DNA of 54,599 nucleotides from Nemertoderma westbladi (GCA_032718475.1 JAUCBJ010005450.1:1-54599), one strand, 5' to 3'; positions 582 through 39,587 are shown, counted from the first letter of the stretch. Notes: generated from the letters alone by a model not told the origin. Numbers and translations are program-made.

Positions 582-684
582 CCGCTCCCAGAAAATGGGA
601 TTTAAGTCTATAAAATATAACAAATCACAGTTTCTAAAATATAAAGATACTCTAAACAGTTAGTCTTTCTTACGCAGACGGCGT

Positions 685-2189
685 TTACGCAGTTTTTGAG
701 GCTAGCAAGAGTCCTTTTCTCTTTGGGGCGAGCCACTTTACTAGGAGGGCTATAAATCCTGGGTGAAGGGTGCAATATGATTGCATCAGAAGGTGTAGGA
801 TTATGGTCGGGGTATCCGCCGTTTCGATATGCTTCTCCTCGAGCTGATTTTCCTCCGCTCGTAGCTGGATACGTTCATCCAAAAACTCTCGCAGAGAATG
901 GGGTTGCCTAAGTTCGATATCTTCTTAGAGATTCTGGATTTTACAATCGAACTGAGATAAAGACAATTCGTTTATCGCTTGGACTTGCTGTTACAACTTA
1001 CGTTTATCTGAACAAACGCAGGTTTCCTTTCTGATCTTTGTAGAATAGCGTTTAACTCGTTTGGTACAACGTTCTCCGCCACTTTGGTGACAGGGTATAT
1101 CGTGTTAAGCCGGGACGGGACGATGGTAAGGGTTAAACGGCGATATTAAATGTCCGCGTCCCAATCCGGCTAGGTAGAATGGGCTAGTATCTAGGAAGCC
1201 CACAACTGGGGTGCCACCGACTAATTGTTCAGGTAACACTAGATCTTTGAGCAGTGAGTACAGCTCGGGAGGATCCGTCATACTAATAGGATCAAATCAA
1301 GAGTCTGAAGTCTCACTGGGGAATGAGGAGTTCTGATCGAGTATTCCGAAACTCTGATCATTGGTTTATTTAAGGATCGTCTGAGTCGAACGAGCTTAGG
1401 TGATACATCGAACAAGTTTCGCTCGAAACTCCCGTAAGTATAACGAGTAAAACCGTGTTTAAAGCAACGCCTCCGCGGATGTTTATGTCTTTCCGTTTGT
1501 TGGTTGGGTCTAGGGCATTCATCGCAATAATACCAAAAACGCACGTCTTGTAGGGGAAACGCGAGTGATCTTTCTCCAGCTTACAATATTCCTCCATCCG
1601 TTCGAAGCTATCCGGTACAACAGGTAGCGATCGATCAGCGGTAAGATACATCATAGTGGAATAGAGCCGTTTGAGTTCTACCATGCGGTCATGATGTATA
1701 CCTTGAGGATATCGAGTTTCTAGATTCTGTTGACTGGTAATATCGAGATAGGTTTCTCTCAAGAATTCCAGGTATTTGGTGGAGTCGCTGCGTTTATCCG
1801 GCATTTCGACATCTGCACTTTCAAGTCGGTTTCGAATAGAATTTTCGTGTTCGAGTCTCAGTTTATCGTTCCGCTTCCGCTGGGTATGATATTTAAATAA
1901 ACCATTTCCCTTTGGTGTCTATATCGTTCGTATCGTGTAGGTCGATAGGATGACCAGTAGTTAAGAAGTCCATATACGTACCATTACGATGCGTATAGTG
2001 AGTGATGAATTTTCTACAGTCTAACCCACGCGCAAGTTGCTCCCGGGACATTGGCGGTTAGATATAACGACCATCGTCCTCCGTAGTAGTTGGACCAGCG
2101 TCGCCGCGTATCAAGCTATCATCAAACGCTTGTAAAGGTAGAGTATATCGCTCCCTGATACCAAGATCATCTTCTATCAACTCAATCAT
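685..2189 (-). pseudogene. Decayed extra ORF of E1 (about 500 codons, unknown function)
   Basis: ATG at 2189 (MIELIEDDLGIRERY...) links through stops and frameshifts into ORFs 1370-1804 and 685-882. It lies between the pol remnant and the PPT. Confidence 0.6.
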
Positions 2190-3016
2190 ATCTGCTATAT
2201 AAGTTTATCCATATTATAATGAGTTTATATTTAGGCGAGCGGGCGTCGCTGCCTACCCCAATCCGCCCCCAGACAGTGCGAGATCCTCAGCACCGATGTG
2301 TCGTCGCCGCTGTACTTTCGCCAACGACGTAGCCGCACAACGACAACGACAACCGGCACAAGTCACTCGACTGTCCGTCCCAAAGGCTTAGATACACCTC
2401 AGGTTCTTACTGGAGAGTTAGGGTTACTTTCACAATTGCGACTCGCTACTGTAAACACACCTTAGTAGTAACATTCGCCTATAAACTCACAAATACCACA
2501 CACACAACTTGTCACAAATTACACACACTCGGGTCACTTGTCCGTTAGTCAATGCCTTCCAGAATGTCACTGTATTATTATGTATCCTTGGATACTATCA
2601 GTGCACTATTTATTCCCTATGCTATTCAATGGGACAAGCTTTCTATTGTTCTTTTAACTCAATTCTAATTCTAGCGTGGTTGTTACTATGGTGACATTAT
2701 GTAAAGCTAGCGATAGAATTAGGGTAATTCCAATGCATACAGATCTGGGATGTTATTTAATAGTAATTCTTTAATAGTCAATGTCCTGTTTTATACATGA
2801 CTTTATGAATTTTATCGGCTATTGACTATGTTTGGGAGACTTTCGCACACTCATACGCATAATAGATAAATCTCCGCTCCCTTGATCTATTAATTAATGA
2901 AATTTTGGGAATGTTATAAATTGCGTAAAAATGGCAATTTATTAAATTCATTAAGAGACATGAATTTAAATTTATTCCCTGAAATTTTATTATTTGATAA
3001 TTAAATTGACATATTT

Positions 3017-3296
3017 TGGTTCTAGAACATGGCTGGGGACACAAGATCCTTAATTCTATGAAAATTGTCCTTTTAAGGATATCGGTAAATGCTACGATAT
3101 CTTAATTGACTAGAATTGTTGAAGGATCTGAATTTTACAGATTTTGATTTATTAGATTTGCAAATATTAAATAATTAATATTTGAGATGGGCACCAATTT
3201 ATTCCAGAACTTGTCTGGGGACGTTAACCACTGATTCTAGAATTTGTCTTTCAAGTATATCGGTGGGTGCCACGATATCTTAATCGACTAGAATTA
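3017..3296. repeat. Diverged direct duplication (about 100 bp, period about 180 bp) in the E1 3' region
   Basis: ctgggga...atatcggt...cgatatcttaat.gactagaatt occurs at about 3017-3117 and 3199-3296. Confidence 0.6.
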
Positions 3297-3843
3297 CAGA
3301 TGGTCAAAGGGTTTAACAGATTTATTTTGCGTTATACGCTACTGTTAAAGGGACATCACGCTACTATATGTATTATTTAATATACGGTATGAGAGCAATA
3401 TCGCACGAAGCAATGTCAGTGTGAAGAGGCAAGTCGTTTCCAAGGTCTACCCAGAGCTTGGTTTAGCCGAGACACGAGGATCTGAACTTTGCATTCCTAA
3501 TACTCTGCCTACCAATAATACTTAAATATAGTAGTGGCTTTATTGTACTTTAATAAGTACGGACATTTCATCTTACTGTAGTCACGTATTTATAATATGA
3601 TACGGACAGTAAGGAAAGAGGAAAAGAATTATTTCTTGCCGTCGCATTAAATATAATATATACGTAATTAAGTAATAAACGCGAATATATATTGCACTAA
3701 TCTACTAAATAATCGCTAAAATAACATTCTACTGAATAAAATTAAATAAAACGATTAAAATAAAATTACATAATAATACATACATAAATATAAAAATAAA
3801 ACAAATACAAAATAATAGAGTCACACACCCACTCCATATGTTG

Positions 3844-6800
3844 TTACGTTATGGAGTCCCTAGATATTTGAAGGATTAGGGAGGTGGTCGTGGGAAGAGA
3901 ATCTTGCCTTCCACAGTTTCCGGAGAGTCCTCCATTCCCTTCCGGTAAACACAAACGACCGACTGGGTGATTGAGTCGCTGCATCCTGAATACAATTCCA
4001 GGTTTCCTCTTCGTCCTGGAATAGTGACGATAGAAACATCGCTCAAAGTATATGAAGGCGTCACAAAGCCGATTCCAGGAGCTATAGTGGTCCGTCGCTC
4101 TCTGCAGGAGAGGTGAGAGTCCCTGCGGGACGTCTGATGTTCCAGAGCTCCAATCGCTCTCTCTGATCTTCATGAAGGATCCACTCGCGGTGGGGAGGTC
4201 CAGATCCACGGCGTCGTCCCTGGCAATATGTAATACCGACAGATCTATCCCGGGTTCAAATAACTCCGCTCCACCCGTCCGGGTTTTAGGTTTAACTTTC
4301 TCCGCTCCCTTGGCTGGTCTAATCTCAGTCGGAGTAAGATGGGGAGGCCATTCATCCTCCTTACTCAGGAAGTCGGGTTCACCTAACCGGTCTGTAGTAT
4401 CTGTCAGTTCTTGAGGAGTTGCTCCTCTGGAAGCGATGTCAATTGGATTAAACTTCTTGGGGCAATATCTCCATTGATCTACATTGGAGCTAAGATTGTC
4501 ATTATCTGAGGAGTGTGGTGTTCCCTCAGTTGGGTCGTCTCCCTCACTAGTATCATCTTCCCATTCACTCACCTGGCAGACGCGATCTTGAAGCAGTCTT
4601 TCCCTGAGCGTTCTACGGGAAGGTCCAGTAAGGTACCAACCTACTCTAGTTCTTACCGCATAGGTCTGTAGTGGCTGCGGTTGAGCAGGTCGTTTCTCTA
4701 ATGTCTCCAGCGCCTCATGCGCATTTTGGCCGATGAGTATTTGCACTCCAGGATAATCAGTCTGGAATCGAGGTATGCTAAGATGTTGGATGCTCTCATC
4801 CTCGTCCCAATTATAAAGGTCTGCTTGAGTAGTAGCGAAGTTCTTTATAGCCACCATTTTCACTGACCTTATGCTATGTTCTCCTAGTTCGTCCTGGGGG
4901 GTGGACAACGCGCCTACATAATAATCAGCTGTTACTGTAGATTTCCAAACTTGCATGATTCCTGACATGTTTAGCTTGGTTCGGAACTTGGGTTGTCCAG
5001 CAAAGATGACTTCGGCTAGTTCTTTATCGATGAATGTTCCTGTGCTACCAGAGTCCAGGAGGGCGTTCACTATATAGCTCTTCTGAGGTCCGTGGACCCG
5101 TAACTGGACTACAGGAAATTCTCGGATTCCTATATTGGAAGTTGACGCTTTCCAAGATGGTTGTTGATCTGAAGTAGTTAGGGTGAGGTCGCTGTCTGTG
5201 TCTTTCTCATACATGAGTGCTCGATACACTGCGGTGGTGTTTATTAAGTAACAGGATTCGTTTTCGTCGGAGAACTCGTCCGTATAGAATCCTTCCATCT
5301 CAGATTGATCAGTGTCGTTCACATCACTGAATTGGACATGTAGTTCGGACTCACTTACCTGACTCGGGCTGTTTCGTTCGAATTCCGTGTGCAACAAGAT
5401 ATGATGTTTTGCGCCGCACTTTGCATACCTTGCATCGGAGTAACAGGTTCGCCGTTGGTGTCCTCGTCTGAGGCAATTATAACACAACCGCTTATCCCAC
5501 ATGACTTCACGTCTATCCTCGAGTGATTTCCTCAGGAATTTATCACACACATTCAAACGGTGGGGCCCGTCGCACAGCACACATTTCGGCTTGATGTTAC
5601 TTACTTTAACCTGTGCTATGTGGTGCACACTTGTTCTTTCCTCGGGCTTTCTCACCTGAATTCTTTTAGGAGACGTAGGAGGGGTTTTTTGTACCGGTTC
5701 CCTTCTGTCATTGGGTCGAGACTTGGATTTACTTACCTGGTCTTTAGGCATTTTATTGACATAATAAGATCTGTCAGTGTCTTTCCCGCTATCCTCTCCT
5801 TGAGAAGTTTGGCTTTCACCGTCGTCGGTATAACATACTGGTGTTACCCTTCTCCTAGAAACGGGTTTCTCACTTACCTTGTTTTCCAGTGTCTTCTCTC
5901 TGGACTGCCTTAGGAGCTGTAATTTCACTTCTCCATCTAAGAATGACATGAGATCAGCCATGGTAGGATCTCGTCGTTGTTGTTCCATCATATATAACAC
6001 TTTCTTGTCCCAGCGTGTACCTACTCCACCCTTGGGCAAAGTAGATGCTAAGGCTCCTACAACCATAGAATTCTGGTATTCATGAGACTTACCTATCCAA
6101 TCTAGCTGTCTACAGATCTCCTGAATTTCGTCGGAAAACTCTATAATCCCGCTGCTAAGAAACTTTCGGGGCGCCATTAATTTCGCATATAAATACCTAG
6201 CTATGTTAGTCTTATTACCATACCTGATGTTTAGTGTATCCCAAACTTGTCTTAATCCGTCTGGATGTCCAATAAACTTTAACGCCATTAACTTGGGAGA
6301 TCCTTCCAAGCACTCGATGAGGAATCTAAGTTTCTCTCCATTAGATAGCACAGAGTTCTGTATGTTATCTTTGTAATATTCATTAAAAGGTAACCATTTC
6401 ATCTCATCTCCATTGAACTTGACGATCTCTCCCACCTTTACCGCTTGCCGGGCTTCGGTTCTAGCCATTTGACGGGCAAAACTTTCTTGGGCCATCGTAT
6501 TATTGAATAGATAATTATCGGTATATAAGTTTCTCGGATTATTATCAAGTCTAGATGAGATATCATTATCAACAGGTTTATAATTACCCTTAATAGGGTT
6601 TACTATAGGAGTTTCTACTTCGCTAGCAGTATAGATGCGTGTAGGCTCCACACCTTGCGCATGAGATACTTCAGACCTAACAGGTTGACACATTGTTACC
6701 GAGGGTGGTGGTATACCCTTTTTTAAGTTTACTAATTTATCGCGTTCTAACGCGATACTTTGCTGCACTTCTTGCAACTCTAACTTACTTTCCCTCACTG

Positions 6801-8259
6801 TTCCTTTTAAATGTTGGACAGTCCCTTCCAACTCTCGGACCTGTTGGGAGGAGCGTATCCGATTCTCCTTCATCTCTCCGAGGAGAATATCCATCCCCCG
6901 CCGTCTCTCGTCTACCCAATCAACCGCCGAAACGGGATCCGCCAACGTCGTAGCGGGCAGACGAGGGACAACGGGCGACAAATCATGAATACTTCGCTCG
7001 GGGTCCAGGACCTGAACTGTCTCCTGGGCAGTTCTACGGGGCACAGGTAGCTTAGTGCTATGCAGAGGGAATTTATAGGTAGCTTCAGGGAGCACAGGTG
7101 TGTCTATCACCGTAGGGGTGATTTCAAGAACAGGCCTAATTATTTCAGGCTCATCTACTATAGTAGGGAGTCTTTCTATTTCAATTATTTGGTCTGTGGG
7201 TTCTGTACTACCTAAGTTGGTGTTATTTAGTTGTCTTCTAACAGCTGGAGGCAAATCAGGCAATTTCTGACGGTGGAATGTTCTTTTACGTCTGCTTAGA
7301 CGAGATCGCTTTCCTCCGCCTTCAGTGTCGGTGGTATCGCCTTCCTCAGATGATGTATACCCCTGTCTTTTGGGAGTAGATCGACTCATCATCTGCATAT
7401 TACTAGCTGCTAACTGTTTACTGAAGTCGTCTTGCTTCTCTTGAAGATTTTCCAACTCCAGTTGGATGATCTCTTCAGCCGCTTTTCGTTCTACTTCCGC
7501 CACTGCTGCCGCTTTTGCCTCTGCCACTGCTGCTTTTGCCTCTGCCGCTGCCGCTTTTCGTTCTGCCTCTGCCACGGCTGCTATCTTTCTGTCTTCTATA
7601 CGTTTTTTCCTTACTTGTTCTTCCTTTTCTCTAGCGATGCGGAGTTGTTCATCGAATTTAGCTTGGTTCGCCGCTAACATTTCCGCATCGATTGCATCCA
7701 GCACAAGCTTGGTTCCTTCACTATTAGGGCTAAGCCCCTCCAGCCTTCTCCTCAACTCTTCATCTCCCACAAAGCGTTGATAGTCTGACAGATAGATGTC
7801 AATGGCATCTCTCTTTCGCGGCCCCTCCGCTGTCCCTTCGCTTTCTTCTTGAGAAGAAGTGGCGTCGGTTGATTCTTCATAGGTTGGCCGTTCATCATAA
7901 ACCGTATCCGCCATCTTCGCTCCGCGTTCGGGCGTCCGCTCAACAGTATCCGAACTACTGGAGCTCTCGGGCCGCTGAGAACTAGGTTCTTGGCTCGCGG
8001 GTTGTTGAGGTTCCGCTGCTTCTTGGTCCCGCTTGACCTGAGCTCGAGTGCCTATGATAGACCTACGATGTTGGACTAGCCTAGGGTCTGATACTACTAC
8101 TTGAGGGATGATTTTTCGCACAGTAGGAGGGGACTTAGACTTGGATCTAGGATGTTCTATACTTGGATCTGGGTCACTGATCTTTTTAAGACACTGTCTA
8201 ACAGTCATTCTAACACTATCTAGGAGACTATCTGACAGTGATTGGGTTGTGTCAGACAT
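3844..8259 (-). CDS. BEL/Pao Gag-protease polyprotein with RNase H and integrase tail remnants (1471 aa)
   Basis: N-terminal coiled coil; DUF1759-like KFNGDEMKWLPF; Zn knuckles CVLCDGPHRLNVC, CYNCLRRGHQRRTC and CGAKHHILLH; aspartic protease LLDSGSTGTFI; RNase H tail WRYCPKKFNPIDIASRG. No RT YxDD motif and no integrase D,D35E core. Confidence 0.9.
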   Translation of the reverse strand: MSDTTQSLSDSLLDSVRMTVRQCLKKISDPDPSIEHPRSKSKSPPTVRKIIPQVVVSDPRLVQHRRSIIGTRAQVKRDQEAAEPQQPASQEPSSQRPESSSSSDTVERTPERGAKMADTVYDERPTYEESTDATSSQEESEGTAEGPRKRDAIDIYLSDYQRFVGDEELRRRLEGLSPNSEGTKLVLDAIDAEMLAANQAKFDEQLRIAREKEEQVRKKRIEDRKIAAVAEAERKAAAAEAKAAVAEAKAAAVAEVERKAAEEIIQLELENLQEKQDDFSKQLAASNMQMMSRSTPKRQGYTSSEEGDTTDTEGGGKRSRLSRRKRTFHRQKLPDLPPAVRRQLNNTNLGSTEPTDQIIEIERLPTIVDEPEIIRPVLEITPTVIDTPVLPEATYKFPLHSTKLPVPRRTAQETVQVLDPERSIHDLSPVVPRLPATTLADPVSAVDWVDERRRGMDILLGEMKENRIRSSQQVRELEGTVQHLKGTVRESKLELQEVQQSIALERDKLVNLKKGIPPPSVTMCQPVRSEVSHAQGVEPTRIYTASEVETPIVNPIKGNYKPVDNDISSRLDNNPRNLYTDNYLFNNTMAQESFARQMARTEARQAVKVGEIVKFNGDEMKWLPFNEYYKDNIQNSVLSNGEKLRFLIECLEGSPKLMALKFIGHPDGLRQVWDTLNIRYGNKTNIARYLYAKLMAPRKFLSSGIIEFSDEIQEICRQLDWIGKSHEYQNSMVVGALASTLPKGGVGTRWDKKVLYMMEQQRRDPTMADLMSFLDGEVKLQLLRQSREKTLENKVSEKPVSRRRVTPVCYTDDGESQTSQGEDSGKDTDRSYYVNKMPKDQVSKSKSRPNDRREPVQKTPPTSPKRIQVRKPEERTSVHHIAQVKVSNIKPKCVLCDGPHRLNVCDKFLRKSLEDRREVMWDKRLCYNCLRRGHQRRTCYSDARYAKCGAKHHILLHTEFERNSPSQVSESELHVQFSDVNDTDQSEMEGFYTDEFSDENESCYLINTTAVYRALMYEKDTDSDLTLTTSDQQPSWKASTSNIGIREFPVVQLRVHGPQKSYIVNALLDSGSTGTFIDKELAEVIFAGQPKFRTKLNMSGIMQVWKSTVTADYYVGALSTPQDELGEHSIRSVKMVAIKNFATTQADLYNWDEDESIQHLSIPRFQTDYPGVQILIGQNAHEALETLEKRPAQPQPLQTYAVRTRVGWYLTGPSRRTLRERLLQDRVCQVSEWEDDTSEGDDPTEGTPHSSDNDNLSSNVDQWRYCPKKFNPIDIASRGATPQELTDTTDRLGEPDFLSKEDEWPPHLTPTEIRPAKGAEKVKPKTRTGGAELFEPGIDLSVLHIARDDAVDLDLPTASGSFMKIRESDWSSGTSDVPQGLSPLLQRATDHYSSWNRLCDAFIYFERCFYRHYSRTKRKPGIVFRMQRLNHPVGRLCLPEGNGGLSGNCGRQDSLPTTTSLILQISRDSIT

Positions 8260-8689
8260 GTTTGTTTACAGTTGAATGCCTACGGCTATAAATACAGCTA
8301 AAGCAAGTCTAGTAATTCAGTATCAACTGCTAGCCTAGTAATTAATTACCGATACTGCTACTCAATGCAGCGTGATATATATATAATATATTAGAATACC
8401 GGTATACTTATAGTATATATAACTATATAAGTATTATTACAGACCAGGTTTATCACAGAATACCGGTATAATTTTAGCACAAATATATAAATATATAATA
8501 GGCCTATCGGGAATACCGGTATACAGCTTACAGTTTGTAGTATATATAATTCTGGAATAGAATTAATTACAAGTACCGGTATAATTTCAGCCTAGATTTA
8601 TAGAAATAAAGATAATAGGCCTATCGTAAATACCGGTATATCAATTATTTTAAATAATTGAATTTCTGAATTTTAGGGTTACTTGGTTA

Positions 8690-9065
8690 GGGGCCGTCCA
8701 AGTATGACGTCTGCACTTTTCCCCAAAATGTTGACCCCCTCCCTCCCCTAAATCAGATGTCATCAGATAGGCGTTGACCCACCCCCCTCCCCTAAATCAG
8801 ATTAAAAAAAATTTTTCGTCCTAATCACTGAAAGATGGTGACTGGTAACTGAAACAGAAGGTCGTGCCTCGGGTCTTCGGGGGCTTCGAACAATTAAAAT
8901 AGGCAAGTTATTTACTGTTCTGCTATATCTCTTCTAGCACCTATAAATTACCATGCTGACGTCAGATTTTGGCTGACCCCCTCCCCTCCCCTCATCAGCA
9001 CGTCATCAGATTTTCCCAACCCCCCTCCCCCCCCTAAAGTGCTGACGTCATACTTGGACGGCCCC
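8690..9065. mobile_element. PIF/Harbinger (Tourist-like) MITE in the E1 leader
   Basis: 30-bp TIR GGGGCCGTCCAAGTATGACGTC(T/A)GCACTTT; TTA target duplication at 8687-8689 and 9066-9068. Confidence 0.9.
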
Positions 9066-11110
9066 TTACTTTACTTACTTTATTACCGTTATTTGAGCAG
9101 TAGTCCAACTGATATTGAGACCTAATTGTTGTATGGTAGGCCTACTATTTATAAATCGTTAGATTTGATTTATAATATATATATACCCGTTTAATGGGTT
9201 TTGTCAATATTTGAAATAAATGTTATTATTTCTGGGGAGTAATCACTACACAAAGCGGTGCGCTTTCAGTGAAGTGTTACTTATAGGACACTAAAACAAA
9301 TAATTCTAATTTACCTAAGTTACTTAATACTACAATTACGTACAATTCGGGTGAGATTACAATCTCTAAATAAACACAAAAATTTACAAAAAACACAAAA
9401 TACGAATTTTTAGGGTAATTTTACAAGAAGTCTACAAACCAGCCTAACAAAGGGTTAGAATCTGGTTATTACAACGAACAGGGCACTACGGTATTTGAAA
9501 ATAATAAGTAGTAGTAAATACACTGCGTTGTCCAGATAGGAAAATACCACCGCCTGACGACCTATAGCCGTATCGCTATAGGTTCTACGTTATGTATCAC
9601 GGAGTGTTCCTACCTAGAAGCTAATAGAGCTAATCGAAGGTGCCTATCAACCACTTTACAACACAAATATAATGCCTACAATAATTACTTTCGGAAAGCA
9701 CTGTACACTAAACCCTAAATTAGGTACGAGTACTTGTACAACAGATAATCAGTAGTTAAATATACTTGAACAGCTAAAAGAACCACGGCATCTGCTGGAG
9801 TGACCGGTGCACAAAATCACCAGTCTTTACCTACGCCAAGCAGCCCGTGTAGTACCGGGGTTAGTTTAACTATAACGGTATGTATAACAAACACAATTAC
9901 TGTAGGAACAAACTTGGGGAATATGAATGTTGCGAATAATCGCATAAACTCTGAATAATAAATATTACGCTACGCGTACAAACTACTCAAACAAAATGCA
10001 GACCAAATACCGACAGACTACCATCAAGCCTAAACAAACTACGGTATATGCAGACTCCGAAATAATTAGGTAGTATGCGTTCTAACCCAGTAGTACGACT
10101 TATTCTTTAATTGGGGGTTTACCTTACAGCATTCGCTGCCCCTACTTCCTAACCGTTCTTTATCGGACAGGTGATCTACACACACTGCAATCCGTTCAGA
10201 CTTAACAGCAATCAGACAACAGCTCAGCCTACAAATTGTCTGTACAATCTGATCAGGTTTACACGCCTTCTGTTCAATACTGGCCTACTAACAAATAAAA
10301 CTGACAGAAATAGGCCTAAGTAAAATCCCAATAAAAACCAGGCGTCCCCGATTAATTATTAAGACCTACCGGCATATATAATCAAATCGAATAATACTGC
10401 TGTACTTATACGGAAGTACCGGTTAGGACAGTTAGGCCTACGGACCTACCGAAGTACCGGTTCTGGCAGTTGGACCTACGGGCCTACGGATGGACCGTTC
10501 AGGTTTACCGGTTGACCGGTACTTTCAACTTTATTGCTTACTGCAATAAAGAAGCTATATCCTTTATTGTTCGCGCTTTCAGACCTTTGGCAGTTTAACC
10601 CGCCAAATTAGGATGTCTTCTAGATAATAAATCGCTTTAGCCTCTAACAAGTATTTGATTCAATACACTAGTTGAAACCAATCTGTGCGCGATCATTCAC
10701 CCGTTGGATATACCCGGGAGATTGATTTCGACAGCTTAATCGTATTGCTATGTAAGCCTAATGTATTATTCGACTGACAGTATTATATAATCTCTGACAA
10801 TATTATTCACCTTCGGGGAATATTAACAGTTCCTTTAGGACGTGGCGCTCTATCTATATAAACAGAGTTATGACTTAAACTACTCACAACGATATGGCTT
10901 AGTTATAATTCACATATATGTCGCATTCTTTAGGAAATGCTTCTTTATCAGTTTCACTCATACACAATGCCGCACAATACTGCACACTAATCTGCCGATC
11001 TTCACTGATTTTAGTCACATATAAAAGGAACACAGACTGGCTCATGTAGGGTCTATCAAATAACATTAGATTCACTTCAAACCACTTTAACATAAGTCAC
11101 AATCGTTATA

Positions 11111-11804
11111 TGTAACCCTTCTCTCTTACCTTCGGTATATCAAGAATATTGGGTTTCGGGGTTATTTCTCGTTATTCCAATATAATAATTCATCAACAAA
11201 TATAATGAATAACCGACAGCAAAATCAGTAAAGTTAAGGTATAAATGATTTGGTATGGTATGCCGCATTTATGGATGTTATGCAGGTCGATAAAGGATAT
11301 ATGTCCTTATAATTAAGCCTACTAGTGTAAGGCTAAAGCAGAAAAGCACAAAATACTCTAAAGCCGTTCTTCCTGGCTTAGAATCACTAACAACACTGAT
11401 AAGAATAACTATAAGAATACCAGCTACCCTTATTCCATGAAGCTCCCGTCCAACACAGAGGATGAGCATTGAGATAGGAAAATTCAGTTCAGTAGCTCTG
11501 TGATAGGTCAAAATCAAAGCCAGCTCAAATCCTATTGGCAGATACAGAAAGCTGCAACGTGGCAATATCAGCCGTTAGCCGTCGTCATGGTAGCGACACT
11601 GTTTTCAAGAGTATCGAGCTTTTTACGTCATGAAATTGCAGATTATGTCCTCTAAAGTACAAATACAGTTCAAATACAGAAGAAATGACTTTTATGTCCT
11701 CTAAAACACCAGTACAGCAAGGACACGGCCTTTTTATGCCTGGCAAACCAACTACAGAGTACTTTAAGGGAAAATAACCGGTTAATGACGCAAAAGCTTT
11801 TACA
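11111..11804 (-). repeat. 5' LTR of E1 (inner boundary at 11111 tentative)
   Basis: 11224-11804 matches 1-581. The 11111 boundary is inferred only from a TGTAA/TTACA terminal inverted repeat. Confidence 0.75.
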
Positions 11805-12142
11805 ACAACTATATCCAAGAAATTTAACAAAACCGCAAATCAGTCAAAGTGAAAAGGGGGGACAGTTCCCCCTTCAACCCCCCTTTCAATCAGCACCCCG
11901 TCCCAAAAGCAAAGCCGCACCAAGACCGAGTCAAGCAGAATAACCTATGGAGATAGATATTTATTATGACAACACACCCGGTTCTTTTAAATTTGCGTGA
12001 TTTGAGTTTTATGCTCGCACCACTAATTGAGTTTTATAATATTTGTAAGAAATGTTAAAACTTATCTTATGCCAATGTAGTAATGGTATTAAAATATAAT
12101 TAAATTAATTTGCACTATTAATGCTTCAGCTAAAAAATGATG

Positions 12143-12797
12143 TGTGGCGGAATCCACTGGAGTTGACAGTGGTGGATTCCGACCGGTGTGGATTGTACGC
12201 GTCGTCGCGTCCGTGGGCTGCTGGGCCAACGCTGGATATATGTTAGGCTGAAGGCCGTTGAAAAGACAGAGTTAAATTGTCAGTATTAATAATCACAGCA
12301 ATTGATAATAGCACAGTCTGAATATAATAATATGCAATACAAACAGTAACGACGACGGTTAAAGCTATTCCGGTCTCACAACTGTAAGGAACTAACTAAT
12401 CTAACTACAGTATCAACTAACTAATAATCAGTAATCATAACGGTTATATCATTGACACATATTACACTCTACACCCTACACTACTGGGCGGCCTTAATAT
12501 CCAATAGATGCGCTCTTGTCCTCCCCAATGTGCTTTCCTGCCTACTATTGGCTTAACCTGATTAATACTCACCTCGCCACTCCCTGTTGGCGTTATCCCT
12601 TGGTGCTAGCCTTACTAGCTTGTTTGTCCCTCTGAGGAAGTTTGACCTCTCACCTCTCTCTGTGGCTTACGGCGTGTGTCGCCCCAGTTGGTTATGAGGT
12701 GAGATTATTATTGGTAATCTCACATCGCCAACTATATTGGTAAAATGCCACTAGTCCCATTTTTGGTGGGTAATGAACGAAATTGAATGTGCTTACA
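12143..12797 (-). repeat. 3' LTR of E2
   Basis: TG...CA termini and adjacent PPT; homologous to LTRs at 32009-32584, 39588-40201 and 46031-46618. Confidence 0.85.
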
Positions 12798-13445
12798 CTC
12801 CCCCCTATGCTATCTTCCAGGTGAGAAGATAGCATCAACCTTAAGTGCGCTTCAATTCCGCTGGAATCCAATCTAATATTGGACGTGGGGTGGAATTTTC
12901 TTCTCGGGGTCGGCTTTCCAGGCCGGCCCCCATGGGTCTGTTATCACTACCCATCCTTGGTACATCTGCTAGCTATGTTGTACCAAGGCATCTGGCGTCT
13001 CTGTTTTAGATAATTGCCCTCACTCCTCACACAATTTTTCTTCTTGGACTTTGTTGTCCCTTCCTCTTTCACCAGTCCCTTGGGATTCATCCTCCTCTAT
13101 GCTCCCCCCCCCCCACACTTGAATCTCGCACTTCTTTCACCTCCTCAACTCTAACACCTTCTCCCCATGCTTCCCCCATTCCCCGTACTCAACCCCTTTT
13201 ATTGTCACGCACCATGTCTGTGAGATCCGTCTAATGTCTCGTCCTCCTGTTCCAGTCAATTGGTCCCCGATCCTAGTAGCTACTTGGAAAAGGGTATATT
13301 TTTACTATAGTACATACATTGATTATATTGGGTATTAGTTAATTAATTTTACGTACGTACATACTAATTGCACTTAATTAATTGCACTTAGGAGTTTGTA
13401 CTGTCCCGTTCATGTGGTGCCTTCCAGGCACACTGTTCCTGAATT

Positions 13446-14179
13446 CTAGTTTGCTCCTCCCGTCTTCGGGAACCATCTGAGTTTCTTGCCCCTATCGTCA
13501 TCTTGCCTGGGCCGCTTCCTTCCTTCCTATTTATCCTTGAGGCTACTCATCGTCGCCGATACCGTCTTGCCAAGCCCCATTGTTGGTTCTTTGGGCGCAG
13601 GTGTTATCAACTCCCGGTATCGCTTCGCAGGTGGTCCCACTGAATGTCCCTCCTGCCTCCCTCTAGTAGCGTCCCACAAGATCATCTCCATCGCCCGCGG
13701 CACGTGCCCCCCAGAAAGTCCCTGAATTCGATCATATTTTCTGGTGACCATCTGTCTAGGTATCTTTGGGTGTTGATGACCCCTCCGTACGATGCCGCTG
13801 TCGCTACCTCCTGATACGTGAATGGTAGTATCCTCTTGGTGATCTCTTGGTGGGCTTCCACATTAATGTTAAAGAAGCCCCACCAGAACTCCTGGGCCTT
13901 CATCCTTTGTTGTGTCATGACTCCGACATCGGCCCACTCCTCGAAGATTCGGAACTTCTCCTCATCATCGTCCATCCAGTCGCACTGGCGCTCAAAGTGC
14001 CCTCTAAACTTGCAATTTGAACATCTGTTGTGCAACCTCGGACATGCACCCATCTTATGGCTTGACTCGCGACAGTAGAGACACGCCATCCCCTTCTGGA
14101 AACGGTATAGACAGTTCTTTTGCTGATGGGTTAGTCTCCCACAGTAATCGCAACCGTGTACTATTGTGTCCCGCCCCAA
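13446..14179 (-). pseudogene. Extra ORF3 of E2, C-terminal part (frameshifted): three CCHC zinc knuckles and a basic tail
   Basis: CDYCGRLTHQQKNC, CLYCRESSHKMGAC and CSNCKFRGHFERQC. It overlaps the upstream ORF in the -1 frame; a second shift near 13710 and one stop (13527) extend it to 13446. Confidence 0.7.
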
Positions 14180-16074
14180 GTCGTCCTTGGCTCCGCGTGG
14201 CCTCCTGGGTCTATGGAGCCGCTGGTCATCTGGACGCTGTCCTCCCTACCCAAGTCGATGTCCACCTCCACCCTCGGCATTGTTTCTCCAAACACTACCC
14301 GTGGTGCTGTTCCCGGTTGCTCGCCCAACCTGATCGTACTCGCCGCAAAGTCCATTGCCGGCTCCCCATGCTCCCAGGTCCACTTACCGGGTTTCTCCCA
14401 GAAGGCTCTCGCCCCGCTGGCCGTCACCACCCTCCCATCCACCCAGTCCGTATCTGAGTGGCCGATCCTCACTATCAGTGGCATCGCCCCGAACTCGTCC
14501 TCCTCCTCTTCCCCTGCTGGGACCGCAATCCTCTCTATCAGCGGCATTGCCCCGAACTCGTCTTCTTCCTCCCCTGCCGGGAGCGGATCCGAACCCGGTA
14601 GCACAGTTGATCCAATGTGTCCCTTTCCACCCTGGTATCCGCCCATAGCCTTCCACCCTTCTACCTCCCTCGGTCTCTTCCTCCCAATGTCGCCCTCAGA
14701 GCCCACTGGTACGGGCATTCCTTGCAACCCCGATGTTGACTGTCTTGGCGTTTCTTCCATCCAACCCAGTTCGTCTTCCAGCCAAAACTCGTCTGAGGTC
14801 TCTGATCCCCACTTCTCTTCCAAGAGTTGGGCTTCGAACTCATCCTCTCCCCTTATATCCGCTTCTCTGTCCGCTGCCTCCCTTCTCTTTCTCCTGGCGA
14901 CCTCCTCTAGTCTCCTTTCCTCAACCCTATCCGCCTCCAGTTTCCTCCATCGCTTGTACGGTGTGTCTACATCTCTGTCTAGAAGGTGTCGGGTATCGAA
15001 AAATACTGACTCGCCCTTCATCCCCGGGTGGTCTACAAGACCTTTGAAGGCCACCTTAAAGGCTCTCCTGTGATTCAGAGGTGCTCCTGATAGTAGAAAC
15101 GCCGTCGGCTCCCTCCCGAAGATCACTGTAATGAATAGGTTTAATAAACCTATCATTATCCAATCCTCCTGTAAGATATATCTCTTCTGATATATCTTTA
15201 TCGCTCCCCTCCGGAACTGATACACTTCCTGCTTTCCTGGCCTCGCTCCCCACTTCAGCGAGTTCGCAAGTTCCGAACCCCGAGTCCGAGTCCGGAACTT
15301 GTTCCAGTCCATTGGCTTGTGGCAGATGAGTCCCATCAGTTGGCCCATCGCCACGGCTCCGCAATGTCCCGTGTTCTCCACCAATCCCAATCCCTCTGGT
15401 CTCGTCATAGCCATATAGACTACCTGCATGTCCAGGAGATTGGAGGTGTCCGGTCCAATGATCTTATCCGCGTCATCGCAGATCGCCGATCCCACCTTGA
15501 TCGTAGTTTTCTGTCTCACTAGGTCCTGCACCGCCCTCAGCAACCGGTTTAACTTCGGCCCGCTCTTCTTCCCATAGGTCCCCAGGTCGAATAGAAAGAT
15601 ATCTCCGTTCGGCGCTGCCAAATGCAGCAATATAGTTCTAGCCGATCCTGCCAACCCCCTTCTCGAGCCCTCGTCATCCTCCACAGTCCCTTTGTCGTCT
15701 AGGACCATGTATCCGCCCCTCTCCACGGAATCTACACATCTCCTCCACTCCTTCCTCGGTGGTTCCCTCTCCCTCGGATACTTCAGTATCCCAAATGTCG
15801 CCTCGTCTCCCTTCACAACGTACTGAAGATGCTCGTGGATCGCGTTGTCCAACGACGGCGTCCCGTAGGTCCCGACCAGTCGTCGCTCGTGCATCTCCCT
15901 AAACTGGTCCTGTAGCGCGTGCGCCCAGTGACCCTTTGGGAGTAGTTTGTAGTATCCCTTCGTCTTCTCCTCCAGATGCCTCTGCGTGAAGTCCACTAGC
16001 AACTCTTTTCCAGTCTTCTCCGACTTTCTCTTCTTTACTAATTTCTCCGCCATCACGAATCCATGCGCTCTCAT
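14161..16074 (-). CDS. Extra ORF3 of E2, N-terminal part: DnaQ/DEDDy-like 3'-5' exonuclease domain (RNase D/WRN/EXD-like), then charged coiled coil and acidic repeats
   Basis: Ordered motifs MVLDDKG, LLHLAAPNGDIFLFDL, LVRQKTTIKVGSAICDDADKI, NLLDMQVVY, KWGARP, QKRYILQED follow the WRN/EXD/Mut-7 exonuclease pattern. Confidence 0.72.
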   Translation of the reverse strand: MRAHGFVMAEKLVKKRKSEKTGKELLVDFTQRHLEEKTKGYYKLLPKGHWAHALQDQFREMHERRLVGTYGTPSLDNAIHEHLQYVVKGDEATFGILKYPREREPPRKEWRRCVDSVERGGYMVLDDKGTVEDDEGSRRGLAGSARTILLHLAAPNGDIFLFDLGTYGKKSGPKLNRLLRAVQDLVRQKTTIKVGSAICDDADKIIGPDTSNLLDMQVVYMAMTRPEGLGLVENTGHCGAVAMGQLMGLICHKPMDWNKFRTRTRGSELANSLKWGARPGKQEVYQFRRGAIKIYQKRYILQEDWIMIGLLNLFITVIFGREPTAFLLSGAPLNHRRAFKVAFKGLVDHPGMKGESVFFDTRHLLDRDVDTPYKRWRKLEADRVEERRLEEVARRKRREAADREADIRGEDEFEAQLLEEKWGSETSDEFWLEDELGWMEETPRQSTSGLQGMPVPVGSEGDIGRKRPREVEGWKAMGGYQGGKGHIGSTVLPGSDPLPAGEEEDEFGAMPLIERIAVPAGEEEEDEFGAMPLIVRIGHSDTDWVDGRVVTASGARAFWEKPGKWTWEHGEPAMDFAASTIRLGEQPGTAPRVVFGETMPRVEVDIDLGREDSVQMTSGSIDPGGHAEPRTTWGGTQ

Positions 16075-16404
16075 CCAACTGGTGGGGCCTTACATAGGCT
16101 CAGTTTAAGTGAGAGGGTCGTCAAACAGGATGTTAATCGTTCCGATCAGTGATAGCCTACCTCATATATTTCGTTTTTGGTATATTTTGTACAAATATAC
16201 CCCCTAAGTGTCAATTCGCCCTAAATTTGTAATTTTTGTCCATTGCTTTTATTAATTATTCTAGAATTTCCTCCCACCAGTTGCCATAATTTGTTAATTT
16301 TCTAATTTTGTCATTATTTACCAATACCCTACGTCTGTACTACGGGCTGTGCGGTACAGTAGTCTATTTCGTGCGGCCTACACGGTCTATCCTACTGTGC
16401 CCAC

Positions 16405-16885
16405 ATGTCCCCCCCTTTACCCTCACGTGGCGCCCTTAATGCCCACAAGTTTTACGGTACTGTGTACCCTTCTACTACGGTATGCGTACATAACATACCC
16501 CCCAATTCCTCACGTAGCGCCCTCAGTGCCCACAAGTTCTACGGTACTGTGTACCATTCTACTACGGTAGGGTATGCATATATACCCCCCAATTCCTCAC
16601 GTGGCGCCCTCAGTGCCCACAAGTTATACGGTACTGTGTACCCTTCTACTACGGTATGCGTACATACCCCCCAATTCCTCACGTGGCGCCCTCAGTGCCC
16701 ACAAGTTTTACGGTACTGTGTACCCTTCTACTACGGTATGCGTACATACCCCCCAATTCCTCACGTGGCGCCCTCAGTGCCCACAAGTTTTACGGTACTG
16801 TGTACCCTTCTACTACGGTATGCGTACATACACCCCAATTCCTCACGTGGCGCCCTCAGTGCCCACAAGTCTTGCGGTACTGTAA
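16405..16885. repeat. Tandem array, about 6 units of 82-87 bp, between pol and ORF3
   Basis: aattcctcacgt recurs at 16504, 16591, 16673, 16755 and 16837. Confidence 0.95.
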
Positions 16886-17136
16886 ATTAGGTAGGCCTAC
16901 GTTGGTACATTATTGTACCCGTCCGACGTACATAATTGTAACTACCTACACTGTATATTATGTACGTTGGTACATCTGTACCCATCAGACATACATAATA
17001 TCTACTATCTACCTACAGCGTACCTTGGTACTAACTACTTATTTTATTATTTTGCTTATTTTTATTTTTATGTGTGGGAAGGGCGTCTCGCCCTCATTCC
17101 CACCCCCCTCAGTCCAATATATTGGACGACTCAACT

Positions 17137-18144
17137 CTAAGGCGACCCTTCCAATAGGCAACACTTTCCTACCGCCCTCCTGTAGGTCTTCCTATCTTTG
17201 GCCCCTATCTTTCCTCCGATCCTCACTTCCACGGATCTAATTCTTCCATCCTCGTCGGGGTAGGTTTCTACTACCCTAGCTAGTCTCCACTGGTTATTGA
17301 TAATTGTGTCATCCGTGACGATTATCAGGTCACCCTTCTTTAGCTCCCTTTGACTGTTCCTCCATTTACTCCTTTTGTGTAGTGTTGGAAGGTACTCTTG
17401 TATCCACCTTGTCCAATACTCTGCGCTTATTGCCTTAGCGACCTTCCAGCTTTGACGTGAATGCATATCGTCTGGATCCACGCTCCTCATGTCAATCGTC
17501 GCTGGTCTCTCCATAAGTAGGTGTGCTGGTGTAAGGACGTCCAGTGATTCTGGGTCGTCGTTCTCGGGGTATAGCAGTGGGCTATTAATAATCCCCTCAT
17601 ATTTAGCCAACACTGTCCTCAATACGTCCTCCGTGATCCATATGATAATTCATCAGTTTGGTCATTAGTCGTTTGGAGCTTCCCACAAGTCGCTCTACAA
17701 ATCCTAGTGTGTGTGGCGCGTATGGTGTTCTCCTTTCCCACCTTATTAGGTGTTTCCTCATCGCCGCCCTGACATCTTCTCCCTCCAGGATGTCAAGGGC
17801 CTCCGCTAACTCGTTCTCCGCGCCCACGAAGTTACTCCCGTTGTCTGAGTATAATACCTCGACTGTCCCTCCCCTGCGGGTTACAAACCTCTCAAGTGCA
17901 TTAATAAATGCTGACGCCGTAGCGTCCTGGGCTAGTTCTATCCCCACCGCCCTCGTATTATTGCAGACGAAGATAATGCCGTAGCGTTTCTCCGTATGCC
18001 GCATCACCTTTATCTTAATCGGCCCAAACATGTCCACGCCGCAGTGTGTGAATGGTGGGTCGTGATGCCTCACCCTGTTGGCCGGTAATGGCGCCTTCTC
18101 CTGTACAGCCCTCTCCTTCTTCGTCCGTCGGCAGGTCTGGCACT
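17137..18144 (-). pseudogene. BEL/Pao integrase core plus DUF5641 (frameshifted)
   Basis: PFTHCGVDMFGP, YSDNGSNFVG, GFVERLV; then LTPAHLL, YWTRWIQEYLPTL, WRLARVVETYPDEDGRIRSVEV, RRAVGKCCLLE. Confidence 0.92.
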
Positions 18145-18450
18145 AAGCAACAACTCCTTCATCAAGACAGCGAGCTCAACGCGCTGTCGCCACAATTGGA
18201 CGATGACGGGATCCTGGTCATGAACTCCAGGGTGGTAAACAACAACAGCCCAGTCATTCCACCGAAACCGATAATAATCCCCAATAAGTCACCAATAGTC
18301 AACCAGATCATATGGGATTCCCATAAATCTATACTACATGGGGGTACTAAGCAGACCCTGACCGAAATCCGGAAAACATTATGGGTAATCCAACTCAGAA
18401 AGATGGTGAAGGCGGCAGTGGGGCAGTGCCAGACGTGCCGACGGACAGAC
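18143..18450 (+). pseudogene. Inverted segment encoding the integrase HHCC zinc-binding domain of E2
   Basis: LSPQLDDDGIL...DSHKSILHGGTKQTLTEIRKTLW...CQTCRR reads on +, opposite to the flanking pol sequence. Confidence 0.88.
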
Positions 18451-18475
18451 GGGGACGAAGTGAACCGAGTTAGCA

Positions 18476-18987
18476 TGCTGACTCGGTTCACTTCGACCCC
18501 GTACCCCTTCATTTGCTCGTATCGTATCACGGCTTTAGCCGCCCCTTCCAGATCGATGGTGGGTCTCGTTTTGGTATCCTTACCAACTCCCCTGAGGAAA
18601 TCTCCGTAGGCCCTCAGATATGCTACCAGTTTCTTAGTCTTATACCAGCCGGAGCTGTAACTGAGCAACATATCTGTTGGGCTGTCGCACGACTCTCTCG
18701 GTTTTAGTTGCGGTGGCGCCTCCTTAATCTCCCTCGCCAATTGGCTGTTTATTTCCTCACCCTCCGATTCCTCTCCCTCCTCCTCTACTGTTACTTCCTC
18801 TGTACCTGGGTCTACCTTCCTCATTGGTGGCCAGCTCGACCTATCGTTAAGGAAGTGCGGCCCATGCTGCCACAACTCATGCTTTCTCGAGAAAGCGTGG
18901 CGTACAATGCCCCTCGATAGCAGATCTGCTGGATTGTCGTCGGTTGGGCAGTAGTGCCACTTTTCCAGATCGGTCGTTGCCCTTGTC
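18476..18987 (-). pseudogene. BEL/Pao RNase H C-terminus and linker (continues from 22028-22187)
   Basis: [18 protein letters not shown]...LWQHGPHFL; joins across the LINE to the upstream RNase H piece. Confidence 0.85.
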
Positions 18988-21691
18988 GCACAGACACGGT
19001 GGTGGTGTCTGTACTTACATTCGATGTGATTTAGCTTTTAATCGTAGGGAAGATTTAGAGACTTGTGACGAAGTTTTACTGGTGGAACTTTTACTTCCTA
19101 AAACTAAACCTATTTTAATCGGTACTTTATATCGGCCCCCTAAACAATCAGATTTTTTGCAAAATTTTGAAAATACAATTTTATGTAATCTTAGGTCAGA
19201 CTGTGAAATATATTTCTTAGGTGATTTTAATATCTGTTACCATCACAAAGCATCCCCCATCTGTAAACAGTACCAAAGTATTTTAAATTTGTTTGGTTTA
19301 AAACAAATTATTCGAGATTCTACCAGAATTACCAGTAAAACTTCTACTTTACTAGATCACATCCTTTGTAATAATACCGATATTATTTCTCAATCTGGGG
19401 TTTTACCTATAGGTCTAAGCGATCATTTTATAGTTTTTTGCACAAGAAAGACACAAAAATCTTTTTTCGGGGATCATAAAACAGTAACAGTTAGGTCTAT
19501 GAAAAATTACAGCAAGGAACGCTTTTTAAGTTTGTTAGTTAATTCTGACTGGGAACCCTGTTTTAAGGCCGCTGACATTAACCTTGCGTACACTGTTTTT
19601 AAAGATATATTTTTAAAGGCACTTAATACTGTAGCACCAATTAAAGAAATTAGTCTTAAACAACGCACTGAGCCCTGGATGACCTCGGGTATTCTTAGTA
19701 ATATCAGAGAAAGAGATAACTATTTGTATAAATTTAGGAAATACCGTGTTTTAGCTGATTATAATAATTACTGCAAATATAGAAACCTTGTCCAACGGGA
19801 AATAAAAAAAGCTAAATCTGAATATTTGTACAACAAAATAAGTGAGAATAAAGATAATCCAAAAAGTCTATGGTCTACCCTAAAATCTTTAGGTTATAAA
19901 AACCTTAAATCTAAATCGAATATTGTTCTGCAAGATAACGGTGAGCTGATTCATGATCATACTCTAGTTAGTAATTTATTTAATAATTTTTTTACTAGTG
20001 TTGCCTCTAATTTAGTTAAGAAATTACCGTTATCAAGTAATAAATATAGTATAGGGTCCGAAACTCTAAATAATTTTTATTTAGAAAAGTTACAAAATTC
20101 AGAAAAGTTATTTTTAAAACCCGTTTCTGAGGATTTCGTTTTCCAAAATCTACTTAGCCTATCAGCCTCAAAAAGTACCGGTCTAGATCTAATACCTGCC
20201 CGTTTTCTTAAGGATGGTGCTGTAGTACTTAAAGTGCCTATTACTTTTATTATTAATTACTCTATCGTAGATAATGTAGTACCAGACGAACTGAAATTAG
20301 CTAAGGTTGTTCCTCTGTATAAAAAGAATAGTAAAGTAGAACCCTGTAATTACAGACCTGTTAGTATCTTAAGTATTGTATCTAAAATTCTAGAACGTTC
20401 TGTTTTTCTACAGCTGGAGGCACATCTTAGTAGGCTAAATCTGATCTATGAACTTCAGTCCGGTTTTCGTAAATCATATTCTACAGACACCTGCCTTATT
20501 AACTTAACTGATACAATTAGATGTAATAACGCAAAGGGTTTATATACTGGTATGGTAATGTTGGACCTACAAAAGGCTTTCGATACTGTAGATCACGAAA
20601 TTCTGCTTGGTAAGTTAGGCCTGATGGGTGTAGGTTCTATAGACTGGTTCAAGTCCTACCTGTCAGACAGAGGTCAAACTGTAGTCATTAGCAAATCGCT
20701 GTCTACTGTACAAGAGATTACCTGTGGTGTACCGCAAGGTAGTATATTAGGTCCTCTGCTTTTTGTATGCTATGTAAATGATATGATAAGTAGTATAGAT
20801 CCCGATTTTAAACTCATTTTATATGCCGACGACAGTGCTCTTATTTTCTCTCATAAAGATCCTATCCATATTTCCCAAAAGTTAAGTGCAGTTCTAGAAT
20901 CTTGTAATGAGTGGTTGGTTGATAATAAGCTATCCATTCACTACGGTAAAACTGAAAGTATTTTGTTTGGTTCCAAAAGAAAGTTAAAGAAGGTAACTAA
21001 GTTTGAAGTCACTAGTAATGGACATAAGATTGAAAATAAAAAGGAAGTTAAATATTTAGGCGCCACATTGGATAACTGCTTATCAGGAGAAAGCACAGTG
21101 AAAAATATTTTCTCGAAAGTTAACAGTAGGCTTAGGTTTCTATACAGAAATAAAAATAGTTTAAACACCGACTCCCGCAAGTTACTTTGCTCTTCTTTAA
21201 TACAGTGTCACATGGACTATGCGTGCTCTTCTTGGTATGAAGGCTTAACCAAACAGCTTAAATGTAAATTACAAGTAGCTCAGAATAAAGTAGTACGATT
21301 TATGAAAGACTACAAACCTAGGCACCACCTAACTCCAGATGACTTTTCTGAATCTGGACTACTTAACTTAGATAGTAGAGTTAAGCAGCTACGCCTTAAC
21401 CATGTGCATAAAGTGTATAATGGTAAATGTCCCAATTACCTAAAACAAAAATTCAACAGAGTACGCGATACACACTCTTACAGTACCAGAGCTAGTGCTT
21501 CAAACTTCTACCTCCCGAATTGTAAATCCTTTGAATCTGATACTTTCTTTTTTAACGGCATAAAAAATTGGAACGCTCTGCCTAATGAAATTAAAAACCT
21601 AAATAATCAACATTCTTTTAAATCTGCAGTTAAATCTCATCTCCGTGTGCAATGTAAAAATAGGTACAATAGTCCTACAGTAAGTTATTAG
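18944..21691 (+). CDS. LINE ORF2: truncated AP endonuclease plus reverse transcriptase (first ~15 codons are flanking host sequence)
   Basis: HGGGV, YRPP, GDFN, LDHI, SDH; [49 protein letters not shown]. Confidence 0.93.
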
Positions 21692-22027
21692 TTTATTAAT
21701 TATTTACTATTTATACTGTAATTACGTTTTATATTAAATTGTTCTGTACATTACATCTTTATCGTTGAGTCGGGCATTGTCACGCTCTCGGTAAAGTTGT
21801 ACATGTACATATTGTAATTACGTTTTATATTGGTTTTAGGTTAGCGTAGTGTAATATTGTATTTGTAACCAAGTAACATAAAGGACCCCCTTGGAAATAA
21901 GCTGCAAAGCTTTAGGGGTAATCCTATATGTTATGTTGGACAATACCTTTATACCGGTACATTGTTTGGTGTATTTGTTATTGTTTTTACATAATGTATA
22001 AATAAATCTATCTATCTATCCATCTAT
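18988..22027 (+). mobile_element. 5'-truncated CR1-group LINE (Crack/Daphne/L2-like) inserted in E2 RNase H
   Basis: Uninterrupted ORF2; 3' UTR with AATAAA and a (TCTA)n tail; possible imperfect TSD cttgtc/cttatc; host pol is contiguous across the insertion. Confidence 0.9.
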
Positions 22028-22187
22028 CTTATCTCGTCCACCCTGTACGCCACAAATATAGGGTAACGTGTCTTCTCGTTATGTAGCCACCCTAACACTA
22101 CCATGGAATCTGTCCAGTAGTGTGTCTCTACTATACTTGGTATAGTGTCCACCAAATATGCTGTCGCCCTTACTCCTAGTACTTGCG
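22028..22187 (-). pseudogene. E2 RNase H fragment upstream of the LINE insertion
   Basis: VLGVRATAYL...HYWTDSMVVLGWLHNEKTRYPIFVAYRVDEI. Confidence 0.8.
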
Positions 22188-36600: not shown

Positions 36601-36637
36601 CTGTATAGGCTAATCGATCTTCTTTCAGCAGTGCCTA

Positions 36638-38241: not shown

Positions 38242-38281
<40 letters not shown>

Positions 38282-39530: not shown

Positions 39531-39587
39531 AGTTTCCTTGAGTTTTCCTTGAAGTCATGGTTTAGACTTTCTAAGCGTGGTTTAAAC

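Follow-up and report, generated by a model that had tools for sequence, protein, structure and literature searches.

Open reading frames (ORFs) encoding DEDDy-type exonuclease domains have been described as third ORFs (ORF3s) of the bdelloid rotifer long terminal repeat (LTR) elements Juno and Vesta and in the Athena/Terminon elements (PMC5408684; reviewed in PMC6431247, PMC5718144 and PMC6338049), and in the account given in PMC5408684 the authors propose for them a role in 3'-end processing or in silencing. A DEDDy domain is also described within the transposase of the Dada DNA transposons (PMC3706591). For the BEL/Pao elements, the Belpaoviridae profile of the International Committee on Taxonomy of Viruses names the envelope gene (env) as the only third gene (PMC8742986), and the word "exonuclease" has 0 occurrences in the BEL/Pao survey PMC3118150. 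Here we analyse a 54,599-nt stretch of DNA from Nemertoderma westbladi (GCA_032718475.1, JAUCBJ010005450.1:1-54599), referred to below as the window, in which a BEL/Pao retrotransposon, element B, carries an extra ORF after its integrase. A preliminary description, made from the same DNA, had proposed that this ORF encodes a DEDDy-like 3'-5' exonuclease fused to three CCHC zinc knuckles. Our results point to an accessory gene that belongs to a multi-copy family and whose product is probably a nuclease-fold protein rather than an active nuclease.

Element B is a minus-strand LTR element, and it is its 3' half that holds the extra ORF. After its RNase H it encodes a BEL-type integrase, with core and C-terminal domain in two frames (17137-18142, minus strand; rve E 5.5e-7, DUF5641 E 2e-26). 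Its downstream end consists of a 3' untranslated region that closes in a purine-rich polypurine tract (PPT; 12798-13221, minus) and of a 655-bp 3' LTR with TG...CA ends (12143-12797, minus; the far end is at 12143 or 12141). This LTR is homologous to the paired LTRs of a sister element in the window, element C, and is partly 69-77% like them. We take DUF5641 and the RNase H motifs to be markers of BEL/Pao. Reverse transcriptase, gag and a 5' LTR of element B were not found in the window and the element is incomplete; with the 5' half absent from the window, the assignment draws on the integrase end, the RNase H motifs and the kinship with element C. Together these features support the membership of element B in the BEL/Pao family, in agreement with the preliminary description.

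The extra ORF lies in sense with the element, between the integrase end (17137) and the PPT and 3' LTR (12797). A minus-strand frame is open from 16089 to a stop at 14163-14161, and frame reading together with contig comparison delimits the main open frame as 630 codons from a likely start at ATG 16053 (14161-16053, minus). The comparison used contigs of public DNA runs placed on 11000-19200 (8.2 kb, divided into 30 bins); runs X1 and X2 come from one sample that is possibly the source of the window, X3 from a second study and X5, which is shallow, from a third. An upstream ATG at 16074 differs from the other copies in three of the four runs (X5 has no cover there), so that the start is more likely to be at 16053. 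Two pyrimidine-AG sites upstream of the ATG (16099 and 16079) were considered as evidence of splicing and rejected as too weak. A second frame, open from 14245 to 13682, carries three CX2CX4HX4C knuckles, and a third forms the tail, with a stop at 13529 and the final stop at 13448-13446. The C-terminal part (13446-13981, minus), which contains the second frameshift and the late stop, matches no family. As a whole, the ORF comprises about 870-876 codons with two frameshifts and one late stop, close to the 875 or so codons with the same lesions first reported.

The order of domains is a basic N-terminal part, a nuclease-like domain (residues ~96-320; 15094-15768, minus), a charged helix, an acidic linker, the knuckles and a tail without assignment. 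The charged stretch (14809-15021, minus) has 21 D/E and 18 K/R among its 71 residues and is modelled as a helix, at low confidence; the coiled coil that had been claimed here is a candidate. The linker (14434-14808, minus) is probably disordered and contains a 63-bp internal duplication at 14465-14585. The knuckles were located by a pattern scan (14152-14111, 14083-14042 and 14023-13982, minus), and all three keep the CX2CX4HX4C spacing. They lie about 310 residues from the nuclease-like domain. In this copy their frame is not that of the main ORF, and we infer the fusion of nuclease domain and knuckles by reading across the frameshift. The pattern CX2CX3-4HX4C occurs 7 times in the six frames of the window, and the knuckles of the ORF are the only in-frame trio among these matches. 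They weakly match the knuckles of LIN28, of retroviral nucleocapsids and of the Trypanosoma brucei exonuclease RND (TbRND), with E values of 0.05-5.8, and zf-CCHC_4 at E 0.015. The gag knuckle set of a neighbouring BEL element, element A, differs in that its first knuckle reads CX2CX3HX4C, which argues that the knuckles of the ORF were not simply copied from that gag.

Two kinds of comparison bear on the fold of the nuclease-like domain. When the 240-residue domain was submitted to the ESM Atlas, PF01612 clusters accounted for 30 of the 30 named matches (score 0.94, 180 shared features, recognition 3153), with "Werner syndrome-like exonuclease" among them; when a longer piece was searched without filtering they made up 24 of 30, an outcome that counts as the same source. 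Shuffled proteins reach a score of 0.9 in this Atlas 4-10 times in 100. The domain was also compared with five home-made bacterial reference profiles. An NrnC-like profile (34 sequences) gave E 0.12, an RNase D profile (30 sequences) no match and the pooled set E 0.16; in the hhalign comparisons the observed score was reached by 20, 7 and 7 of 60 shuffles. A 12-sequence WRN-like alignment gave a non-significant E of 0.079. A 90-sequence WRN-like profile, the seed of which matches the human WRN exonuclease at E 1.6e-23, gave E 9.7e-5 as a single comparison, was reached by 0 of 1000 shuffles (best 8.1 versus 8.3 bits) and placed the domain at the top of 59 frames of the window. This profile also matches Mut-7 and EXD2 in the PDB. 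With the same 90 sequences hhalign returned E 6.5e-4, a probability of 28% and 159 collinear columns, a result matched by 0 of 266 shuffles. The alignment sets KVGSAICDD on KVGVGIxxD and YILQEDW on YAATDAW, with W298 in register with the tryptophan of YAAxDAW, and the five motifs follow in the order and at the spacing of the WRN-like group; an LLDMQ motif is also present. Similarity to the PF01612 clan by profile or embedding is of moderate strength, the Pfam model itself giving no match, and we regard a WRN-like DEDDy fold for this domain as very likely.

The residues at the catalytic sites depart from those of the canonical enzymes. In this copy the acidic sites read D119, K121, D194 and E296 (D-K-D-E), with Y292 in addition. 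At ExoI (D119 and K121 at 15699-15691; motif LDDKG at 15702-15688, minus) the D-x-E pattern is replaced by D119-D120-K121. At ExoII, D194 (15474-15472; motif ICDDADK at 15483-15463, minus) aligns with the Asp of KVGxxIxxD. At ExoIII (Y292 and E296 at 15180-15166; motif YILQED at 15180-15163, minus) the canonical position of the Asp in YxxxD is taken by Glu in Y292-x3-E296, and an Asp follows one residue later. LDDKG and YILQED read as previously given, the latter now refined by this register, and the DEDDy-like exonuclease of the preliminary description is supported, at moderate strength, as a fold. In TbRND, according to the structural account in PMC7797062, the ExoI Glu and the ExoIII Asp bind the A-site metal, and for this reason the protein of this copy is probably not an active nuclease.

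The Lys at ExoI had been explained as a private, CpG-type decay of D-x-E, which predicts a near-fixed difference from the other copies at this codon. No such difference is listed there, although near-fixed differences are listed elsewhere and at most 1, 2 and 1 differences of the needed kind could be hidden in the three runs compared; the explanation gets no support from these data, with the reservation that the codon is 27 nt from the edge of the compared stretch (15170-15720) and that no differences are listed within 67 nt of that edge, so that an edge effect is possible. The ExoIII acidic codon lies outside this stretch. On balance the state of the family at ExoI and ExoIII appears to lean towards the non-canonical.

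The ORF is a conserved part of a multi-copy BEL/Pao family and not a one-off insertion. Contigs of X1, X2 and X3 cover 30 of the 30 bins of the 8.2-kb region, and those of X5 cover 25, with part of the ORF among the uncovered bins. The 551 bp of nuclease sequence at 15170-15720 are matched by 1066, 781 and 860 contigs in three runs from two studies, most of them <95% identical, which implies that the family holds the ORF in a large number of diverged copies. In some of these other copies the interior of the ORF is joined by deletion to the LTR (12591-15034), to the integrase (14220-17154) or to the 3' region (13282-13863); a diverged contig of X5 spans 13304-13765, the end of the ORF and the 3' region. 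Inspection of the ORF borders revealed neither a target-site duplication (TSD) nor a terminal repeat, apart from a 10-nt AT-rich match. These observations bear out the earlier view of the ORF as part of the element. Of 61 differences in the nuclease region 40 are listed, 11 of which, from an indel-rich patch (15276-15289), were dropped and 29 scored. Among these scored differences 21 of 29 are at third positions and 21 of 29 are silent, compared with a neutral silent share of 0.29 (p 1.4e-6); counting the 11 dropped differences as non-silent leaves p 1.3e-3. The differences at the codons of D193 and D194 in other copies are silent. This excess of silent differences shows that, at the level of codons, the nuclease domain has been under purifying selection during the diversification of the family.

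We tentatively propose that this conserved accessory gene encodes an RNA-binding pseudo-nuclease that shields the element's own RNA. The protein would be made from a subgenomic RNA and its charged helix would mediate dimerisation. The nuclease-fold pocket, with catalysis lost or weakened by the Lys at the ExoI Glu position and the Glu at the ExoIII Asp position, would bind the 3' end of an RNA, and the three knuckles would hold the upstream single strand, as in trypanosome RND. The protein would bind element transcripts, with the knuckles giving the sequence preference, and once bound would keep host 3'-5' decay, or trimming coupled to small RNAs, from acting on them before they are packaged. 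A selected fold with altered ligands, together with knuckles that bind single-stranded RNA, fits an RNA 3'-end-binding protein, and there are precedents for such a function: EXD1 is reported as an inactive DEDD protein that binds single-stranded RNA and acts in the biogenesis of PIWI-interacting RNAs (piRNAs; PMC4712191), and Egalitarian (Egl) with mutated catalytic residues is reported to keep RNA binding (10.1101/2025.08.03.668247). Shielding of the element's own RNA is favoured because a benefit specific to the family best explains selection on an accessory gene.

Other roles may be considered for the same protein. It is rather unlikely, but a serious alternative, that the family encodes an active 3'-5' exonuclease of which only this copy has lost a ligand; such an enzyme might trim the 3' ends of element RNA, primer transfer RNA or complementary DNA, or degrade small RNAs fed to it by the knuckles, like TbRND with guide RNAs. 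This copy retains the ExoI Asp, the ExoII Asp and the ExoIII Tyr, has an acidic residue at the fourth site and carries several private differences besides its frameshifts and stop. Further, the rotifer ORF3s keep a variant tetrad, DEED, that is possibly active in the opinion of the authors (PMC5408684). However, two of the four ligands deviate, and the ExoI Lys codon, as noted above, shows no listed difference from the other copies. A silencing decoy that binds host precursors of piRNAs or small interfering RNAs, or that competes with EXD1, Nibbler/Mut-7 or trimmers and so lowers small-RNA defence broadly, would draw on the fold class shared with Mut-7 and EXD2, on the EXD1 precedent and on the many copies of the family. 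We consider this unlikely: the homologue searches gave no sequence link to any host small-RNA factor, and a general suppressor, which would help all transposons equally, should be harder to keep under selection. We are equally doubtful of an element-encoded suppressor of the piRNA pathway in which a WRN-type fold and LIN28-like knuckles, in a design convergent with trypanosome RND, would recognise RNA 3' ends by sequence and block or reverse both piRNA trimming and the decay of the element's own transcripts.

Several results weigh against own-RNA shielding by a WRN-like protein, and some of them would be accounted for if the N-terminal domain were not DEDDy at all and the ORF were a real accessory gene of another kind, for instance for a second nucleocapsid-like RNA chaperone with motifs that arose by chance. 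Scans of the domain against Pfam, NCBIfam, PHROGs and PDB sequences gave no match, and the HMMER comparison with PF01612 that had been suggested as a check was also negative. Single-sequence models reached a predicted local distance difference test (pLDDT) score of 35-38, which makes them unusable, and fold searches on these low-confidence models returned no DnaQ match. Four of the five home-made profiles were not significant; the HMMER match of the fifth spans 29 residues and lies 0.2 bit above the best shuffle, and the hhalign probability has been given above, as has the rate at which shuffled proteins attain high Atlas scores. We nevertheless hold a non-DEDDy domain to be quite improbable, since the Atlas and the profile comparison both point to the WRN-like group and the five motifs are correctly ordered and spaced. 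In addition, this copy is decayed and its residues may not represent the family, particularly in view of where the ExoI and ExoIII codons fall relative to the compared stretch. The target RNA and all functional steps are proposals.

The absence of the ORF from sister element C is a further point of this kind. Element C (32005-40201, minus; DUF1759, a BEL gag domain, E 7e-5) has the integrase end and the pre-PPT region as in element B, at 76% after the integrase and 72% before the PPT; in place of the 3.7 kb that contain the ORF in element B, it has about 0.4 kb. As element C is heavily deleted, its lack of the ORF may reflect a loss in C as well as a gain in B. This absence and the AT-rich spacers that flank the ORF might suggest that the ORF reached one BEL copy independently, as a mobile insertion of its own or as a retrocopy captured from the host. 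We regard that as scarcely credible: no TSD or terminal repeat was found, cover is continuous with the integrase and LTR, and the deletion joints and the diverged contig of the third study link the ORF to the element in other copies.

Protein word-index searches (lengths 114-2000 aa) found no homologue, and scans of metagenome and viral contigs no relative; no rotifer ORF3 was returned by any search. A HMMER search of 1.84 billion protein representatives gave 2 matches at E<=0.001, both rejected as repeat proteins that score through one short segment repeated 3-6 times.

Upstream of the integrase, the end of the RNase H and a linker occupy 18162-18977 (minus) and include a local inverted piece near 18373-18501. 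A local inversion in this part of pol (18182-18501) is indicated by an opposite-strand joint, 18182/18476, in two runs. The RNase H is interrupted by a long interspersed element (LINE) of L2/CR1 type (18980-22030, plus, ends approximate; ORF 18851-21691, RVT_1 E 4.9e-36, Exo_endo_phos), and loose contig ends lie at 18990 in four of the four runs. Past the LINE, element B continues for only ~150 bp (about 22030-22185), where the translation of an upstream RNase H piece (22030-22185, minus) takes up the frame cut at ~18977 and the element sequence ends. We take this piece, WTDSMVVLGWL...FVAYRVDEI, to be BEL RNase H. Between the integrase and the extra ORF there is a tandem array of six 82-87-bp units (16406-16902; repeat family D2), and at the matching place element C has a different short tandem array (33248-33386). 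This site could be regulatory, or prone to recombination through which cargo enters or leaves the element.

The LTRs of element C are 91% identical, its gag is decayed and most of its pol is absent; judged by eye, its ORF pieces at 33985-35842 resemble a transposase, and they have no Pfam match. Element A (1-11804, minus) is a young BEL with LTRs 98.6% identical. Its 1473-codon gag-protease ORF runs directly into a motif like the end of RNase H, with reverse transcriptase and integrase not detected; its leader measures ~3 kb, and its 3' region contains an unassigned ORF of 182 codons (1370-1918) and frameshifted neighbours, which may represent a further accessory gene. The window is animal DNA, as seen from an intron-split SURF4 gene (25747 to about 27000, minus; Pfam E 4e-65) among several retroelements. 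A fragment at 46031-46213 (plus) is 73% like the start of the element B LTR, on the opposite strand, and adjoins a remnant of a non-LTR retrotransposon reverse transcriptase (46699-48882, minus; RVT_1 E 1.7e-34). At 41323-43553 lies an element whose 81-bp terminal inverted repeats are perfect and include 11-bp subrepeats; a further inverted pair of 49-74 bp is found at 44143-44625.

One unsolved problem is how retrotransposons can become so numerous in animals that defend themselves with small RNAs; to our knowledge, few element-encoded counter-measures to this defence have been identified. The extra ORF is a selected accessory gene without sequence relatives among the protein representatives searched, and it would extend DEDDy cargo from rotifer elements to BEL/Pao and add to it the exonuclease-plus-knuckle design. 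The literature that we searched, to which older subscription papers, Repbase and GyDB entries and supplements did not belong, yielded no exonuclease ORF in a BEL/Pao element. Older papers on the nematode Cer BEL elements reportedly may mention an exonuclease-like accessory domain.

With the ORF3s of Juno, Vesta and Athena, as they are described (PMC5408684), the extra ORF has in common that it is a third ORF placed after pol and distinct from env, that its domain is of the RNase D-like DEDDy type and that its tetrad departs from the canonical one. It differs in its carrier, the clades of Juno and Vesta not being BEL/Pao, in its length of ~870 codons and in having a charged helix and three CCHC knuckles, the rotifer DEDDy ORFs being described without coiled coils; the tetrads read D-K-D-E here and DEED there. 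Within BEL/Pao the extra gene of the env-bearing belpaovirids Tas, Cer13 and Atlas occupies the same genome position, but in the descriptions available it encodes an envelope glycoprotein (PMC8742986; PMC9094657). The best-matching subgroup by Atlas and profile, the WRN exonuclease, EXD2 and Mut-7 group (PF01612), shares the KVGxxIxxD register of ExoII and the YxxxxxW register of ExoIII, whereas the element B domain has Lys for the ExoI Glu, Glu for the ExoIII Asp, insertions of ~10 residues and a similarity below database significance. EXD1 and Egalitarian are alike by description in that a nuclease fold binds RNA without needing catalysis, and they serve as the model for the proposed function; as reported, they are host genes with Lsm or EHD/dynein-binding parts and without knuckles (PMC4712191; 10.1101/2025.08.03.668247).

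The closest parallel in architecture is TbRND (PMC7797062; PDB 7C42/7C45), in which, as described, CCHC fingers lie C-terminal to a DEDD domain and bind the part of the RNA that is upstream of the active site. TbRND is cellular, mitochondrial and active and carries four fingers on a short linker, whereas here three knuckles lie far from the domain in a mobile element, and the two proteins have no significant sequence similarity (E 2.9). The novelty claimed in the preliminary description must accordingly be narrowed, since DEDDy ORF3s in LTR elements and DEDD-plus-CCHC proteins had already been published. DEDDy cargo in LTR elements and the combination of an exonuclease with CCHC fingers are known themes; what is probably new is their occurrence in a BEL/Pao element, the WRN-like subtype and the joining of three knuckles to the domain.

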